Assembly (NCBI GenBank): GCA_965215885.1
Contig: CBDCEW010000010.1
Span: 1-17,093, forward strand
Direction of reading: 5' to 3'
Length of the DNA stretch: 17,093 bases
Source of the DNA: Candidatus Moanibacter sp.
GTDB lineage: Bacteria; Verrucomicrobiota; Verrucomicrobiia; Opitutales; UBA2987
Positions within the stretch are counted from its first letter, which is position 1, and each line of letters starts with the position of its first letter. Positions 1,606 through 17,036 of this stretch are shown here, in pieces. The notes beneath the pieces were generated by a model. That model searched no databases and had not been told where the DNA came from. It was given only the letters and a program-made list of their open reading frames with translations. A program made the position numbers and the translations under genes.

Positions 1606-2022
1606 TCCGTGGTCAATTCTTCTTCATTTGCGTCTATTCGCGTGGTCTGCCGTACGGAAGGTACGTGTTTAGCATGATCATAAGCTGCCCCGGTCTTGTG
1701 CCCATAATTACGAAATTGGGTTGGAGAACCCAAAGTAAATGTTATTCAGGCACTTGCAAGATTCTATTGATTACATAGTATGCCAGAATGGAGTTTCAAC
1801 GATTGTTGTGTGTGGGTTCGTTAGAGGTAGAGAGCTTTTCCTGCAGGTTTGTTTTCAGTTAGAAACTTGTTGAGTATTAATCAGTTACAAAAGCGCTTTG
1901 AACGGGGAGTTGATTTCTGGTGGCAATTGAGTAGAAGCGAAGGGAGCTGGAGAAAGTTGGTATTGGCATTGTGTGTAAAATAAAGTTTGCAGTTTTGCCT
2001 CCTTTCCATACTGTGCCGGTGC

Positions 2023-2724
2023 ATGCAAGAAGAGCTTTCGCGTAAAGAGAGGGAGGTGGTCGAAGCGGTACGGCGGGATCGGGTAAGCACGGTGTGGAGG
2101 CTGATGAAGGAGCAGAGGGTGTCGCGGCGAACGGTCTATCGGGCTTTGCAAAAATATGGCCATTACTCCAGTTACAATGCCAATTGTGGCTACCTGAGCT
2201 TGAAAGACATTCCGCGCTTTGACGGGGCCGGTTTGTGGCGTTTTCGCAAGGGGCGCTTTTCGCGCCACGGCACCTTGGAGGAGACCGTGGAGGCGGTGGT
2301 GGGAGCTTCGCTTTGCGGCTACACGGTGGCTGAGTTGGAGACCCTCCTTGGGGTACGGGTGCACAACCCCATAAGCGTGCTTTGTAGAAAGAAGCGGTTG
2401 AGTCGATACGATGAAGGGCGTCACTGCGTGTATGTCTCGGCCGGGGAACAGGGCGGGGCCGAACAGAAAAAGCGGCGGCAAGGGCGAAGAACAGCGGCAC
2501 AAGTTCAGGCAGGGGACCCCGGGGGCGCTTTGCAGGCAGCTCCCGAAGGGCTCGAAACGATGGTCGTGATCGCTTTGCTGGTCGCCTGTATCGGCCATCC
2601 CGAGGCCGGGGTCAAGGAGCTTGTCGAGCTTATGCAAGAGCAGGGAGTAGAGCTGAGCGGGGAGCAAATTGAGCGGGTGATGGCGTTTTACTCGCTCAAA
2701 AAAAAACCGGAACGATCGCGGTAG
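2023..2724 (+). CDS. IS OrfA: putative DNA-binding helper or N-terminal part of a frameshift-fused transposase
   Basis: Inside the TIRs. HTH-like segments (VSRRTVYRAL; YTVAELETLLG) and a KKK-encoding A9 run near the end. ATG at 2023 preferred over TTG at 1987. Confidence 0.7.
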   Translation: MQEELSRKEREVVEAVRRDRVSTVWRLMKEQRVSRRTVYRALQKYGHYSSYNANCGYLSLKDIPRFDGAGLWRFRKGRFSRHGTLEETVEAVVGASLCGYTVAELETLLGVRVHNPISVLCRKKRLSRYDEGRHCVYVSAGEQGGAEQKKRRQGRRTAAQVQAGDPGGALQAAPEGLETMVVIALLVACIGHPEAGVKELVELMQEQGVELSGEQIERVMAFYSLKKKPERSR

Positions 2725-2741
2725 CGGAGCTGTTACATGAT

Positions 2742-4559
2742 TTGCGGGCAGAGGCTGAACGGGCCCTGCAAACGGTGGGGGCTGTGCCTGCGCAAACGAG
2801 TTATCGCTTCGATGCCCGGGAGGACGAAGAGGGTCCTTCAGAGGTGCGCAAGACCCTGCGCCGCAAGGTGGTCAGTTTCTCCTATGGATGCTTCCAGGCG
2901 GTGGAAGTTGTGCGCGAGCAGGGGCAAGGGAGCCACCGCAACAGCTACCGTTCTGCTCGCCTGGAACAGATCGTGCCCTCGCATAGTCGCTACGCTTACG
3001 ATCTGATTGCCTATGTGGGCAAGCGATGTTTGTGCGAAAACGCCACCCTCAAAGAGGTGCACAGGGAACTGCGCGAGGGCCCGGGGCAGCTGCAGATTGC
3101 TCAAAGCAGCCTCTATGAGATGCAGCAGAAGTTTCTTTTTTATCTGGGTCGGCTGCACGCCGCGGCCGCTCCGGTGCTTAAAGATTACCTGAGCGCTCGC
3201 CCTTGCCTGCGCTGGCTGGTGGATGGGACCGTGGAACCGCAGACGCCGGTTTTCTTCGCTGTTCAGGAAGCCGACGAAGGGATCCTTTTGGGCAGCTGGA
3301 AAATGCCTTCCGAACAGAGCGAAACGATCAGTGGCTGTTTTGCCCGGGCGGCCCGGGCTTTTGGCCAACCCCACCATGTCTATCATGATTTAAGCGCTCA
3401 GATCAGCAAGGCCTGCGAGAGCGAAACCTTCCAGGCCCCCCATGGCGTCTGCCATTATCATTTCGCCCGCAATGTGGGCGAACAGCTTTATCGAAAACCC
3501 CAGCAGATGCTCAACGGGCGCTTGCGGCAATTGAAGCTCATGGAGCGCATGCGCGAGCAACGCAAACACATCACCGCAAAGCTCCGTGACGCCCTCCGTG
3601 AAAAACACGCCCTCGTCCTGGCCGATTTGCTCACCGCCAAAGCGCTCGCAGTGCCCTTCGATCCCACCCTTGCACGGGAACTGCTCATGGCCCTGCAATT
3701 GTGGATTTTGGATTATCCCTGCGACGGTCACCGCCAGGGCTTTCCCTTCGATCCTTACCTGCTTTATTGGCATCGGCGGGTCGTGCGCGCCCATGCCGCC
3801 CTGGAGCAGTGGCTTGCCCGCGCTCCTGCCAGTTGCTCTGTTCTGCGAAGCTTCTTTCATCTTTCGACCGGGTTGAAGCAGTATCTGGCTGATGCCCTCG
3901 TCATCGAAGCCGCTACTATCTATGAAAACGCTTTTTGCATTTTCAGCGCTTTGCGCGATGCCCTTTGGCTCAGCGCCAGCGGCCCCTGCCCTTTAAGCGA
4001 CCCTTATCTGTTGCAAGCAGGACAAGCCGCTGAGCTCACCGAGGCTCTCCAGTTGCTGCGTGCCCAATATCGCCAAAAAGGCGCCTCCCTGACCAACCCC
4101 TCGAAAGCCAAACTCTACCGCACCGTGGTCACTCATCTGGACAAATACTGGCAGCGGCTGCTTCCCCCACCGGCCCATCCAGACAGCGTACGCACGACCA
4201 ATGAGCTGGAAGGCACCTGGCGCACCTCCAAGCGCAAACGCCGTCAAACCCACGGGCGCAAAAATCTGACGCGCGACTTTGAAGCGCTCCCCGAAGAATA
4301 CATGCTCCTGGCCAACTTACACAATCCCCGCTATGTGGAGCTGGTTTTAGGCAGTATCGATAATCTGCCCCAAAAGCTTGCCCAGGCTGCACAGAAAGCA
4401 CCCCCCTTCAGTCACTGGCGGGCGAACAGAAAAACCCTCGCCGTGGGTCGATTGCCCAAAAAGCTCCTGCGAAAAGAAAACTTCCTTGAGGAACTCTTCG
4501 AAGTCTGTAATCGCCAGGATCAATCCTTAAACCCGCAACCCCATCGGATTGCCTCCTGA
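2742..4559 (+). CDS. DDE transposase, Mutator/IS256-superfamily-like (OrfB)
   Basis: Candidate triad WLVDGT, YHDLS and RTTNELEG, with a CxxH motif (CHYH) after the second Asp and a long helical insertion before the Glu. The frame is open upstream to 2673, through the A9 run. Confidence 0.8.
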   Translation: MRAEAERALQTVGAVPAQTSYRFDAREDEEGPSEVRKTLRRKVVSFSYGCFQAVEVVREQGQGSHRNSYRSARLEQIVPSHSRYAYDLIAYVGKRCLCENATLKEVHRELREGPGQLQIAQSSLYEMQQKFLFYLGRLHAAAAPVLKDYLSARPCLRWLVDGTVEPQTPVFFAVQEADEGILLGSWKMPSEQSETISGCFARAARAFGQPHHVYHDLSAQISKACESETFQAPHGVCHYHFARNVGEQLYRKPQQMLNGRLRQLKLMERMREQRKHITAKLRDALREKHALVLADLLTAKALAVPFDPTLARELLMALQLWILDYPCDGHRQGFPFDPYLLYWHRRVVRAHAALEQWLARAPASCSVLRSFFHLSTGLKQYLADALVIEAATIYENAFCIFSALRDALWLSASGPCPLSDPYLLQAGQAAELTEALQLLRAQYRQKGASLTNPSKAKLYRTVVTHLDKYWQRLLPPPAHPDSVRTTNELEGTWRTSKRKRRQTHGRKNLTRDFEALPEEYMLLANLHNPRYVELVLGSIDNLPQKLAQAAQKAPPFSHWRANRKTLAVGRLPKKLLRKENFLEELFEVCNRQDQSLNPQPHRIAS

Positions 4560-4752
4560 CAACGACTCCAGTGCCCTCCCTCTGCTCCCCATTTTCTTCA
4601 TGCTCTAACCAGAGAACTCCACGCAATTTGCGTGCCAACCGAAATTCAGAACGATGGGCACAAGACCGGGGCAGCCTCAAAACGCTAAATAGGTACCTAA
4701 GTCCGACAGATTCCTACCGTTAGCGAGAAGGGAAGGAGAGAGATCGAACTGG

Positions 4753-10135: not shown

Positions 10136-10212
10136 CCACGTTCTTGTCCCGCTCGGCGGGACGGCTACAATGTTCAGGAAGTCGTTGAAACATGTAGCCG
10201 TCCCGCCGAGCG
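10136..10212. repeat. GTAG-type REP doublet: intact left arm plus first part of the IS-interrupted right arm
   Basis: Left arm 10136-10169. Right arm starts at 10193 (TGTAGCCGTCCCGCCGAGCG) and resumes after the IS at 11826-11839. The rejoined right arm is a perfect 34-bp reverse complement of the left arm. Confidence 0.88.
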
Positions 10213-10226
10213 CATACGCGTAAACC

Positions 10227-10427
10227 TTATTTTCGCAACTTAGTCAGATTCAAAGACTTGCGAGGTATTTTGCGGCGGAGTATGAGGGTGTCTCTATCCT
10301 CGAGGTTCCACTCCATTTGTTCGCCCTTTTCTATTTGCTTCGTTTCGACCACAGCGGTGAGGAAATTCGCAGTTGAGCGAGTGCATTTTGGCCGGGTTAT
10401 CTTCTCTACTTTTACCGTCTACCCCAT
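10227..10427 (-). pseudogene. Degenerate small AbrB/MazE-like DNA-binding protein gene inside the IS4 left end
   Basis: Translates MG*TVKVEKITRPKCTRSTANFLTAVVETKQIEKGEQMEWNLEDRDTLILRRKIPRKSLNLTKLRK*. IEKGEQMEW..ED..TLILRR resembles the AbrB-fold pattern. In-frame TAG at codon 3 (10419-10421). Confidence 0.6.
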
Positions 10428-10488
10428 TTTTTCACTTTGGCAGCATTTTATACTGTACATTCGTTCATATATAGGATTTATCCTTCGG

Positions 10489-11808
10489 ATGCAAAGTATA
10501 AAAAAAGCTGATTGTATCCGTCAAACCTTCCGTAAGTTGAACCTCACAGCCCTCGCTAAACAGAGTGGTTTTAGAGAGAGGAAATCGCGCAAGATCTCCC
10601 CTCTGAACTTTGTTTTGGCTTTGCTGGCGATGGCTTCTAAGGGGGCCTTGTCCCTTGGCAAAGAAGCCGAGCTTATTGGATTCTTAGCCAACCGCACCAT
10701 TTCCAGACAAGCGGTCCAAAAGTGCGCCAAAAAAGCCACCGCTTTTATGACCTTAGTGCTCCTGAGGCTTTTAGAACTTAAAGCTTATGGGCCTGTGGGC
10801 AGAGCTGTTCCAAATTGCATGAGGAGCTTTGAACGGGTTCTCATTGCCGACAGCACTTCGATTGGCTTGCCTAAGGTCCTGGCCCCCTTCTTCCCCGGAG
10901 CGTCCAATCAGACAGGCTCCAAACAGGCTCAACTGAAGATTCAGGCCTATTACGATCTGCGCAATGAATCCTTCGTTGACTTCAGCCTCAGTAGCTTCCG
11001 AAAAAACGATCAGGCTGCTTCCAAAGACATTCTCGCTCTCGCTCAACCCAACGACTTGATCCTGCGCGACTTAGGCTATTTTGTCCTCGATGTCTTTAAG
11101 CAACTCGATCAGCGCGGCTGCTTCTTTGTGAGTCGTTTGAAAACCGGCACTTGCCTTTTAGCCAACGAAGGCGATGAAGAGCTCGATCTACGCAAACTTT
11201 TACGTGGCCAAAAGCTTCTCGATATGCCCGTTCGGGTGGGTAAAAAAGCCAAGCTTCCGGTTCGTCTGATCGCCGTCAAACTCCCTCAGAAGGTGGCCCA
11301 TAAACGCCGCCGCGAGCATAGACAAAACCGCGACAATAGACTTCGATATACCAGCCGCACCAGCTTCCTTCTCGGTTTCCAAATCTTTATTACCAACCTC
11401 CATCAGAAAGACTTTAGCCCTAAGCAGATTCTGAGCTTTTACGGGCTTCGCTGGCGCATCGAAATTTTCTTTAAGGCCTTTAAGCAACATCTTAATCTCG
11501 GTCAGGTCAAAGAGACTACTCCCTACCAGGTTGAGCTTCTTATCTACGCCCGTCTCATCCTCATTACCCACTTACTCAACTTCGTCTATGGTCCCCTTAG
11601 ACACTATTCGAATACCAGTTTGTCCTCTCCTCTGAGTATCCTTAAATTCTCCTACTGGTTTGGCTTCTTTGCTCCCTACTTCTTCATCCTCTCTCACCTT
11701 CCCAAAGATCAGATCATCCCCCGATGGCTCAAACAAATCCCCAAACACTGCACCTATGAAAAGCGTTCTCGTCTTGATTTCCTCTCTTGTTTCTTCTCCT
11801 TAGGTTAA
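10489..11808 (+). CDS. IS4-family transposase
   Basis: LIADSTSI (D), LRDLGYF (D) and YGLRWRIEIFFK (Y-2-R-3-E-K signature). ATG at 10489 preferred over the 10258 extension. Stop lies within IRR. Confidence 0.95.
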   Translation: MQSIKKADCIRQTFRKLNLTALAKQSGFRERKSRKISPLNFVLALLAMASKGALSLGKEAELIGFLANRTISRQAVQKCAKKATAFMTLVLLRLLELKAYGPVGRAVPNCMRSFERVLIADSTSIGLPKVLAPFFPGASNQTGSKQAQLKIQAYYDLRNESFVDFSLSSFRKNDQAASKDILALAQPNDLILRDLGYFVLDVFKQLDQRGCFFVSRLKTGTCLLANEGDEELDLRKLLRGQKLLDMPVRVGKKAKLPVRLIAVKLPQKVAHKRRREHRQNRDNRLRYTSRTSFLLGFQIFITNLHQKDFSPKQILSFYGLRWRIEIFFKAFKQHLNLGQVKETTPYQVELLIYARLILITHLLNFVYGPLRHYSNTSLSSPLSILKFSYWFGFFAPYFFILSHLPKDQIIPRWLKQIPKHCTYEKRSRLDFLSCFFSLG

Positions 11809-11816
11809 CGCAAATG

Positions 11817-11839
11817 CGCCGAGCGGGACAAGAACGTGG
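11817..11839. repeat. Target duplication plus distal part of the interrupted REP arm
   Basis: CGCCGAGCG followed by GGACAAGAACGTGG, complementary to 10136-10158. Confidence 0.85.
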
Positions 11840-14985: not shown

Positions 14986-15158
14986 CTCGACCTTTCCACG
15001 CCCGTCAGTAATCGGCTCTTTGAGAAAGCGGCAACATTCAATTCCCTCTTTGCCGACCCCCTCCAGGGTAAAAGGATTCCAGGAAGCAACTAGCTGATAA
15101 GCAAGAAGATAAAAAAAGAGCTAAACAAACCCGAGGGAATCAGTCATGTTAAGATGGG

Positions 15159-16541
15159 ATGAAAGACAAAAAATCTTACCAACTGAATCCTTCGATAGAT
15201 CGTTTAACTCTGCGTCTGGTCCTGCCCGAAGAGCAGGAGCGATTCAATGATCTATTGAAACAACATCATTATTTACACAGTGCGGGCAGCGCAGGAGAGA
15301 CCCTGCGCTATGTGGCGCAGATCGACGGGCAATGGATGGGCCTGCTCTTGTGGGGGGCCGCATCCTACCGGCTGAAGGATCGAGACGAATGGATCGGGAG
15401 GGACGGGGCGCAACGGCATGCACGATTGAAACTGGTAGTACAGAACCGGCGTTTTCTGATTTTGCCCGGGGTGGATCTTGCAAATTTGGCCTCCAAGACG
15501 TTGGGTATGTGCCTGAGAGTCTTAGCCGATCACTGGCAGGAGGCTTTTGGCTATCGTCCCTTAGTAGCGGAAACGTTCGTGGACCCACAGATTCACCGGG
15601 GCACTTGCTACGAAGCGAGCGGGTGGACGCCCTTGGGCTTGAGCGCGGGATATGGCCGCCAACGCGAAGATTTCTATCAACGCCATGAGCGTCCCAAGCA
15701 GATCTGGGTCAAACCCCTCAAGGCTAATGCCCTTGAGCTTTTGCGCGCTTCAGGGCCATTGCCCGCGGCACAGAGCCAGGCGCTCAATGAAACCGATAAC
15801 TCCCATGCGGTCTGCCTCAAAGTGGAACAGATGAGCAGCCTGTGGGAACGCTTCAATCAGATAGAAGACTTCCGTCGTAAAGCGGGCCTTAGATATCGGC
15901 TCGCCACGGTCCTGAGCATGATTGTGCTCGGCACGATGTGCGGCAAACAGACCCTCAAGGGCATCGTGCGCCTGGCCCATCATCTCAATCAAGCCCAATT
16001 GCGCGCCTTACGCTCCTGGAAAAACCCCAAAACAGGCCGCTATAAGGCCCCTTGCTATGATGTCTTCTATCGGGTCTTGCAAAACGTAAAGGCCGAGCTC
16101 TTCGATAAAACCCTCACCGAATTCATCTGCTTACAAGACGGCTGTTTGCCCCGCGATATTGCCGTCGACGGCAAGACCCTCAAAGGCACAAACACCGAAG
16201 AATCAAAGGCTCTGCACCTGGTGGCCGCAGTCGATCACCAAAGCGCTCAAACCTTAGCCCAAGTCGCTACCGCCGATAAATCCAACGCGATCACCGCCGC
16301 CCAGACTCTCTTGCGAAAGATGCCCATTTTGGACGGCTCCACCTTCACCTTCGACGCCATGCATAATCAAAAAGAAACTGCCCACATCGTCGTCGAAGAA
16401 CTCAGTGCTGACTATGTTATTCAAATTAAAGACAATCAGCCCAACATGCATCAATACGCTCAGAATCTCTTCAGCTCCACCCCCTTTTTCTCCACCAAAC
16501 CGTGGACAATGACCATGGGCGACTCGAAATACGTCAAATAG
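15159..16541 (+). CDS. ISAs1-family transposase, N-terminal part, with DUF4338 (DruA-like) domain
   Basis: N-terminal HHYL...GETLRYVA, RFLILP, NLASK, ETFVDP..HRGTCYEASGW. Then ISAs1 motifs DFRRKAGLRY, IAVDGKTLKG, LHLVAA, TFDAMHNQ, DYVIQIKDNQP. Confidence 0.9.
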   Translation: MKDKKSYQLNPSIDRLTLRLVLPEEQERFNDLLKQHHYLHSAGSAGETLRYVAQIDGQWMGLLLWGAASYRLKDRDEWIGRDGAQRHARLKLVVQNRRFLILPGVDLANLASKTLGMCLRVLADHWQEAFGYRPLVAETFVDPQIHRGTCYEASGWTPLGLSAGYGRQREDFYQRHERPKQIWVKPLKANALELLRASGPLPAAQSQALNETDNSHAVCLKVEQMSSLWERFNQIEDFRRKAGLRYRLATVLSMIVLGTMCGKQTLKGIVRLAHHLNQAQLRALRSWKNPKTGRYKAPCYDVFYRVLQNVKAELFDKTLTEFICLQDGCLPRDIAVDGKTLKGTNTEESKALHLVAAVDHQSAQTLAQVATADKSNAITAAQTLLRKMPILDGSTFTFDAMHNQKETAHIVVEELSADYVIQIKDNQPNMHQYAQNLFSSTPFFSTKPWTMTMGDSKYVK

Positions 16542-16933
16542 CAACCCATTCTCTAAGCGCTCCCTCTGCCGGCCTGCCCCATGCCCGCCAGTTCGCCTGT
16601 GTGCAACGCACCTTCCATTATCCAAACAAAGCTGAACCTTCCTCTGAACGCTCTTACTACGTAAGCAGTCTCGATCCCGCCGATTTGAGCCCTCAACAGT
16701 TCCTCTCGAAAATTCGCAACCATTGGTCGATCGAAAATAAAAATCATTACCCCAGGGATCGCTTCTTCGATGAAGATCGATGTATGATCCGTAATCATAA
16801 CGCAGCCAGAATTCTTGCTGCATGCAGGCAACTGGTTCTCAGCCTCAAGTCTTCCATGGGCGCTGAATCCACTCCCGCACTCTGTGATGATTTCGTCTTT
16901 AACTTACATAAGGCCATCAATATCATCACCTAA
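16502..16933 (+). CDS. ISAs1-family transposase, C-terminal part (-1 frame)
   Basis: HGRLEIR and IRNHWSIENKNHYPRDRFFDED motifs. Joined to the upstream ORF by a -1 shift at CCCCCTTTTT (16480-16489). Confidence 0.88.
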   Translation: MDNDHGRLEIRQIATHSLSAPSAGLPHARQFACVQRTFHYPNKAEPSSERSYYVSSLDPADLSPQQFLSKIRNHWSIENKNHYPRDRFFDEDRCMIRNHNAARILAACRQLVLSLKSSMGAESTPALCDDFVFNLHKAINIIT

Positions 16934-17036
16934 TGCTCCGAGAATCAAAATACCGTGGAATGGGGGGCAACCCTCCCCGATCCCGCTCAACGGGACACAC
17001 CTCCAAGGAGGAGATTTCCCAACGGTAAAGCAGAAT

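Follow-up and report, generated by a model that had tools for sequence, protein, structure and literature searches.

Palindrome-centred integration and a transposase probably fused by slippage in a 2956-bp insertion sequence from a prokaryotic Mutator-like lineage that is apparently unclassified

The 17,093-nucleotide contig of Candidatus Moanibacter sp. analysed here (GCA_965215885.1, contig CBDCEW010000010.1; the window, which is contig C10 of host genome G000, 6.36 Mb in 105 contigs) carries at 1702 to 4657 an insertion sequence (IS) of 2956 bp, which in our judgement is likely to represent an apparently unclassified prokaryotic Mutator-like lineage of the IS256 superfamily, characterised by a transposase of about 845 aa, probably fused by slippage, palindrome-centred integration and shuffled flanks. 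The element is a real, multi-copy and recently expanded IS, since the search for other copies proposed by an earlier note on this DNA yielded about 30 in the host genome, more than 99% identical; 30 copies have both ends paired, and 21 of these, free of nested insertions, measure 2946-2970 bp. Alignment of the copies sets the ends at 1702 (CCATAATT...) and 4657 (...ACGATGG), beyond which each copy continues into one of two kinds of flank, either GTCTTGTGC or the complementary GCACAAGAC. Likewise, short-read contigs of four runs from four other studies hold the same element with different flanks at 1702 and 4658. The true inverted repeats (IRs) thus delimited are 23 bp long and identical at 17 of 23 positions. 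The features of the window copy are the following.

1660 to 1692, forward strand: outer arm of a dispersed palindromic repeat of the host (target DNA, outside the IS), which precedes empty cores elsewhere and varies among IS copies.
1693 to 1701, forward strand: 9-bp target core GTCTTGTGC, left copy of the target duplication (12 of the 30 paired copies have such a 9-bp direct repeat).
1702 to 1724, forward strand: left IR, 23 bp, CCATAATTACGAAATTGGGTTGG, from copy comparison; family consensus C.ATYRTTCCGAAATTYGGTTGG (135 junctions).
2023 to 2724, forward strand, from ATG: OrfA (233 aa), an array of (winged) helix-turn-helix units in tandem that supplies the N-terminal portion of the fused transposase.
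2673 to 4559, forward strand: OrfB frame, -1 relative to OrfA, 605 aa from TTG 2742, with an RNase H-like DDE core.
2698 to 2706, forward strand: A9 run, OrfA/OrfB frame junction and putative recoding site.
3222 to 3224, forward strand: D161 of the OrfB catalytic core.
3387 to 3389, forward strand: D216 of the OrfB catalytic core.
3450 to 3461, forward strand: C237/H240, the CxxH of OrfB.
4209 to 4211, forward strand: E490 of the OrfB catalytic core.
4635 to 4657, reverse strand: right IR, 23 bp, CCATCGTTCTGAATTTCGGTTGG on that strand, from copy comparison.
4658 to 4666, forward strand: 9-bp target core GCACAAGAC, taken from a second, inverted target (as in 9 of the 30 paired copies).
4667 to 4697, forward strand: target DNA, namely the outer arm of the host's second palindrome.

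Sixty paired relatives with both ends, 2739-2864 bp long, share the IR consensus C.ATYRTTCCGAAATTYGGTTGG with 17-23 of 23 positions identical; the IR measures 20-27 bp in 45 of them and never exceeds 41 bp by a loose extension rule, and position 1 is C in 99% of 135 ends, under a search pattern that favoured C. The earlier note had described terminal inverted repeats (TIRs) of about 64 bp with a perfect 22-bp core, and such an inverted match indeed exists, extending over 41 nt at 1684-1724 and 4635-4675 with 85% identity, including 22 perfect base pairs (1684-1705 and 4654-4675) and continuing more loosely out to 1660 and 4697. As ends of the element, however, these arms do not stand: 18 of the 22 bases are target and 4 are IS, the entire outer arm is repeated host palindrome, and the 18-base stretch occurs in the host genome 65 times without the element after it and 37 times with it. 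Most of the 64-bp 'TIR' is thus DNA of the host that flanks the element, and it arises because the window copy joins two targets head to head, with their outer arms facing each other; the same copy has no direct repeat because its right core stems from the second target in inverted orientation. The contrast once drawn with the shorter IRs and 8-9-bp duplications of known families dissolves, the real 23-bp IR and 9-bp duplication being ordinary for the superfamily, and the 60 paired relatives do not carry long TIRs.

The two open reading frames (ORFs) of about 233 and 605 aa were correctly recognised at the outset (ATG, 2023-2724; TTG, 2742-4559), as was the order of D, D, CxxH, insertion and E: D161, D216, C237xxH240 and E490 show no variation among the aligned members, whether close (62 of 62) or distant (91 of 91). 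The closest solved fold to the predicted OrfB model (pLDDT 84) is that of ISCth4 (IS256 family, PDB 6xg8), which agrees with the initial assignment to the Mutator/IS256 type, and Pfam MULE matches 19 of the 62 members at E<=0.01. Hermes (hAT) and other eukaryotic transposases with long inserts, in contrast, give a TM-score of 0.28 and no sequence match, and the element has the anatomy of a prokaryotic IS. C237 sits 21 residues after the second Asp, as in ISCth4 and slightly above the 11-19 given in PMC3942029, and between D216 and E490 lie 273 residues, nearly all helical, making the insert about twice the known Mutator-like length. The identification of OrfB as a Mutator/IS256-type DDE transposase with CxxH and a long helical insert is thus supported by sequence and model, and the fused product is predicted to comprise three winged-helix-like domains and an RNase H core with the helical insert.

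The relation between the two frames is clarified by the relatives. OrfA lies upstream of OrfB in all 87 related loci with 500 bp of room, so that the pairing expected of homologous loci is kept throughout. The 76 junctions remaining after removal of duplicates and of loci without a junction contain an A-run of 7-10 in 75 cases, with OrfB in phase -1 relative to OrfA in 59, +1 in 16 and in frame in 1. In the -1 loci OrfA stops 2-5 codons past the run, the OrfB frame is closed just upstream of it in several loci, and the similarity starts at the run, before the TTG. Moreover, OrfA precedes OrfB within a single chain in nine natural proteins 765-1065 aa long (OrfA profile E 1e-30 to 1e-60), and a single 90% cluster contains an 826-aa fused form alongside split forms of 212 and 592 aa. 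Comparison of the sequences thus strongly supports the decoding of OrfA and OrfB into one transposase of about 845 aa, the length of the conceptual fusion in the window copy, via the A8/A9 run. The earlier note missed both this run (2698-2706) and the palindrome targeting described below, and while it saw OrfA as HTH-like (a predicted winged-helix array), the supposed helper ORF behaves instead as the N-terminal third of a frameshift-fused transposase. Its model as a whole, with 64-bp TIRs belonging to the element and OrfA acting as a separate helper protein, could appeal to the reach of the inverted match in the window copy, to the split of OrfA and OrfB in 75 of 76 close junctions and to the TTG of OrfB; yet the outer arms differ between copies and occur without the IS, the IRs of the relatives are short, the conservation of OrfB begins at the A-run upstream of the TTG and fused forms exist, making this model very improbable.

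The mechanism of fusion is most likely slippage of RNA polymerase, a phenomenon that other IS elements show at their A8/A9 runs (PMC1088944). We favour it over a -1 ribosomal shift because one mechanism would serve both phases and because ribosomal stimulators are scarce, no conserved downstream hairpin being found at the related junctions (mean z -0.46, 6% below -2) and a Shine-Dalgarno (SD)-like motif being present in 8 of 79 loci. Programmed -1 frameshifting on A_AAA_AAA, with the +1 cases inactive or due to assembly errors, would accord with the -1 phase and in-frame heptamer of 59 of the 76 junctions and with the -1 frameshift reported for ISMich2 (prokaryotic Mutator-like, p-MULT, family 4). 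Nevertheless, it seems to us rather unlikely, given that a fully supported clade of seven loci is wholly +1, implying that this phase is inherited (it has at least five origins on a quick tree of 74 rows), and that neither a stimulatory hairpin nor an SD motif is conserved at the junctions.

The length of the target duplication, 9 bp, follows from two sites outside the usual target. The copy at C105:15924-11043 has CCCGATAGG on both sides as a 9-bp direct repeat, and when the half-sites on C89 and C97 are rejoined, an overlap of 9 bp is the one that restores an open frame of 348 aa, overlaps of 8, 10 and 11 giving 209-213 aa. The usual target in the host is the core CCCCG-GTCTTGTGC-CGGGG, present twice, in inverted orientation around a central hairpin, in an imperfect palindrome of about 260 bp. 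This dispersed repeat resembles repetitive extragenic palindromes (REPs) and MITEs (miniature inverted-repeat transposable elements), and in the genome 78 cores are empty and 18 inverted pairs are intact (e.g. C88:16770-17040 and C98:56780-57050), with a variable central hairpin and with inner and outer arms in differing combinations; no link between the repeat and the genome's Y1 transposases was found. Among 66 exactly matched IS junctions, 61 lie in the repeat core and 5 beside short GC palindromes. A second, unrelated element, of 1376 bp with perfect ends starting CCATAAG (G000 C44:21144-22519; also on C38, C71, C81, C85, C96 and C14), inserts at the same base of the same core; since its ORF is, as we take it from the sequence type, IS4-like, two transposase families use one target.

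Similar targeting is evident in the relatives, whose 135 distinct junctions show CC[AC][AC]C[GC] followed by 9 bases, with a flank consensus from -15 to -10 of C 0.65, C 0.84, C/A, C/A and C 0.87. The duplicated bases are complementary at pair 1/9 in 106 and at pair 2/8 in 105 of the 135, compared with permutation means of 46 and 55 and maxima of 69 and 73 in 5000, a margin that is overstated because the junctions are related, both as kin and as two ends per element. The inner pairs of the 9-mer are at chance, and among assumed lengths of 5-14 the symmetry signal appears at 9 alone. The pair complementarity therefore indicates a target in which a loop of 5 nt closes a GC-rich stem some 8 bp long, with the cuts falling 2 bp inside the stem on either side. 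The palindrome sequences vary by host, and in the genome G004 of one relative the target palindromes form a 27-copy repeat (control 0). Base-exact GC-palindrome targeting, shared across several phyla, is the element's most distinctive feature.

One question then is how the palindrome is read. Symmetric sequence read-out by a dimer, contacting two CC[AC][AC]C[GC] half-sites 9 bp apart and involving no hairpin, the palindromes of the host being struck for the motif they contain, is in our view somewhat probable and is placed slightly ahead of hairpin read-out: the distinct positional consensus at -15 to -10 favours it, and palindromic targets are generally preferred by many DDE enzymes. Against it, pairs 1/9 and 2/8 covary (A-T, G-C, C-G) far beyond the consensus expectation and the inner five do not, although this covariation may simply mirror the supply of sites, those with the motif already being hairpin repeats. 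A bolder and clearly more tentative possibility is that of a DDE family which, across many phyla, chooses its target mainly by DNA shape and not by any set sequence, namely an extruded hairpin or cruciform with such a stem and loop, the OrfA winged-helix array or the oversized insert serving as a targeting module switched on by polymerase slippage.

The flanks of the host's own copies are heterogeneous: among the 30 paired copies an exact direct repeat is found in 12, one with 1-2 mismatches in 5, an inverted 9-mer in 9 and neither in 4. C99 repeats the left flank of the window contig and C81 repeats the right one, 3 kb of one right flank are common to C99 and C105, and C89 and C97 each hold one half of a single off-target site, so that flanks have been exchanged between distant loci. 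The unmatched and inverted flanks are tentatively attributed to recombination in the population or to mis-assembly or collapse in the assembly. Recombination between IS copies and adjacent deletions often account for lost duplications (PMC11708052), and hybrid copies with non-matching repeats are known for the REP-targeting ISRm22 (PMC1525189). The window contig itself (1-17093) duplicates C99 (1-4613) and C81 (1685-15068) save for the IS content, and may be a strain variant or a mis-join. Alternatively, the mismatched and inverted flanks could be the primary product of transposition, the centre of an inverted repeat being replaced, a mode proposed for IS1272 (PMC5678879), or a deletion running to the second core of the same palindrome. 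The inverted 9-mers, found in 9 of the host's 30 copies and in 4 of the 52 paired relatives, together with the two inverted cores lying 100-300 bp apart in the 18 intact pairs, are consistent with this, but the exchange of flanks among C99, C81, C105 and C89/C97 speaks against it and renders it improbable.

We envisage the following sequence of events. Slippage at the A8/A9 run would join OrfA and OrfB, so that only a fraction of the transcripts yields enzyme, while unshifted transcripts would yield only OrfA, a possible binder of the ends that may dampen activity. Judged by fold and family, DNA would be bound by the winged-helix array of OrfA together with the N-terminal region of OrfB, and the D161/D216/E490 core with its CxxH would perform cutting and joining, probably by copy-out/paste-in via a circle, by analogy with IS256 and ISCth4. 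The junctions show a 9-bp staggered cut centred on the GC-rich palindrome CC[AC][AC]C[GC]-N9-mirror, which in this genome is the core of the dispersed repeat of about 260 bp. Finally, in the present assembly, flanks are shuffled between copies, the window copy joining two targets head to head.

Several points weigh against this picture. The end-to-end IS joint expected of a circle was not found in contigs of the four runs, contigs being prone to drop rare forms. The exact direct repeat in only 12 of the 30 paired own copies is matched by a low proportion in 52 paired relatives (exact 9, inverted 4, unmatched 39), most of which lie on contigs of about 3 kb where copies collapse, and the strict target pattern is high-copy in one of five relatives' genomes, with 0-2 matches in the other four. 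As to the proposed slippage, 34 junctions of the host's copies divide into 18 with A9 and 16 with A8, but the A8 count may be partly homopolymer error, because the short-read contigs favour A9 (4 of 4 runs, with an A8 variant in 1). The quick nature of the phase tree and the kinship of the junctions in the permutation test belong here as well.

Set beside the known families, the element combines general likeness with specific differences. The p-MULT marks given in PMC3942029 are DDE, C/D(2)H, an IR of 18-39 bp with terminal C and direct repeats (DRs) of 8-9 bp; the element has an RNase H fold with D, D and E, CxxH, a 23-bp IR with terminal C and a 9-bp DR, but its 273-residue insert lies outside the 99-138 aa stated there for p-MULT families 1-5, and its IR core is absent from the whole 732-row p-MULT Table S1 of that paper (400 characters per cell compared). 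The IS256 family (p-MULT 1, including ISCth4) has about 1.3 kb and one ORF of about 400 aa, compared with 2.8-3.0 kb and two frames fused to about 845 aa, a distance from the second D to E of 107 compared with 274, and no N-terminal winged-helix array of the kind found here; its subterminal TGTAAA is absent from both IRs and from the family consensus of the element, and, in the portion of PMC3942029 available, p-MULT 1 has no conserved flank, in contrast to the strict palindromic target. The IS256 models NF033543, NF033544 and NF048019 do not reach cut-off (OrfB 28 bits, and the best of 72 relatives 42.3 for IS256 and 37.3 for the Zn variant, vs 150). The ISKra4 family (p-MULT 4: ISMich2, ISKra4, ISAzba1) is likewise Mutator-like with a terminal-C IR and 8-9-bp DRs, and ISMich2 also has a transposase split in two ORFs, though joined by a -1 frameshift; targeting upstream of sigma-A promoters is reported for that family, whereas the element uses palindromes. 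Its model NF033572 gives no match at E<=0.001 in G000 despite the roughly 30 copies (control positive in 2 of 14 genomes) and none among the 72 relatives at E<=0.01. ISLre2, with insertion 15-17 bp upstream of sigma-A promoters in the source available, has no match to NF033529 in G000, where the control was positive nowhere, nor among the 72 relatives. ISH6 (NF041731) reaches at best 24.3 bits vs a cut-off of 240, and its AT-rich DR AANATNTT contrasts with the GC-rich DRs of the element. IS66 (NF033517) has no match with the window protein and weak N-terminal matches in distant relatives (best 36.1 vs 180); IS66 elements have accessory ORFs and an 8-bp DR, compared with 9 bp here.

No NCBIfam or Pfam model comes near cut-off, and among the papers listed by literature searches no description of the family was found. 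The initial impression that the element fits no nameable family agrees with the scores, the curated IS family models giving values far below cut-off or no match, and by these models and the p-MULT table the lineage is apparently an unclassified Mutator-like family. It might already stand in ISfinder under IS256, ISKra4 or ISNCY, merely without a hidden Markov model, since so wide a spread (434 representatives at E<=1e-30, fragments included) could well have met a curator's eye. This we consider unlikely, though by no means negligible: besides the lack of a model near cut-off, the homologues are 'hypothetical' or unnamed, 72,556 plasmids contain no match, the IR core is missing from the p-MULT table and the family is nearly confined to uncultured metagenome-assembled genomes (MAGs).

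Two further groups of elements are comparable in single respects. The REP-targeting ISPsy8 (IS3), ISRm22 (IS4) and ISPa11, ISPpu9, ISPpu10 and ISRm19 (IS110) insert, like the element, base-exactly at the symmetry axis of GC-rich repeated palindromes and are flanked by broken REP halves (Tobes and Pareja 2006, PMC1525189). They belong to other transposase families, the sole IS256 member in the available part of that survey, ISRm5, lying near REPs and not inside them; in the element, unlike these, the palindrome preference is family-wide, spanning several phyla and differing palindrome sequences. The slippage-using IS of Baranov et al. 2005 (PMC1088944) likewise have an A8-A10 run at the OrfA/OrfB overlap, varying in length between copies, and the available text of that study reports no A8/A9 slippage for a Mutator-like element.

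The family occurs almost only in uncultured MAGs. Among 8000 candidates, 284 OrfB relatives were found at E<=0.001, with 42-49% identity among the best 120 listed, the element's own cluster excepted; an OrfB profile finds 1665 representatives at E<=0.001, fragments included. Twenty-nine related loci from MAGs fall in Thermodesulfobacteriota, Planctomycetota, Acidobacteriota, Chloroflexota, Pseudomonadota, Verrucomicrobiota and others, and further loci occur in metagenomes (best 80 of 148). Since none of 60 relatives of the host contains a family member, horizontal arrival is suggested. One distant OrfB relative, P0263, continues into an integron-integrase-like stretch and may be a nested insertion or a chimera.

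The window and genome hold other repeats. A 190-bp MITE/REP-like element at 1416-1605 has perfect 35-bp inverted ends starting CTAG and is present many times over in G000, as well as in G011, a related genome. An IS4-family element at 10198-11829 (NF033592 above cut-off; more than 20 copies) lies within a hairpin repeat with arms at 10136-10158 and 11817-11839. The 1895-bp element at 15064-16958, in about 50 copies, encodes an ISAs1 transposase to which a DruA-like domain (PF14236) is fused; its two overlapping ORFs (15159-16541 and 16502-16933) are split at a C/T-rich run and probably recoded. An IS200-like TnpA element (152 aa, hairpin ends) is present in nine copies (G000 C2:12509-12871 and eight more).

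With this element the prokaryotic Mutator-like transposases apparently gain another family, whose enzyme and insert are the largest in the group, and palindromes would form a third kind of target choice, the others being random and promoter-proximal insertion. In MAGs, protein pairs now called 'hypothetical' would by the thousands become one recoded transposase, and copies of repeat-targeting IS with swapped flanks, which mimic long TIRs, constitute a trap for annotation. Base-exact palindrome targeting offers a tractable case for how a DDE enzyme reads its target, and should the family indeed select by shape, it would use the REP/MITE-like palindromes of any new host as a built-in safe harbour and its transposase could be directed to a designed hairpin. 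For the host, genome rearrangement has a ready source in about 30 nearly identical copies that sit in a family of repeats.

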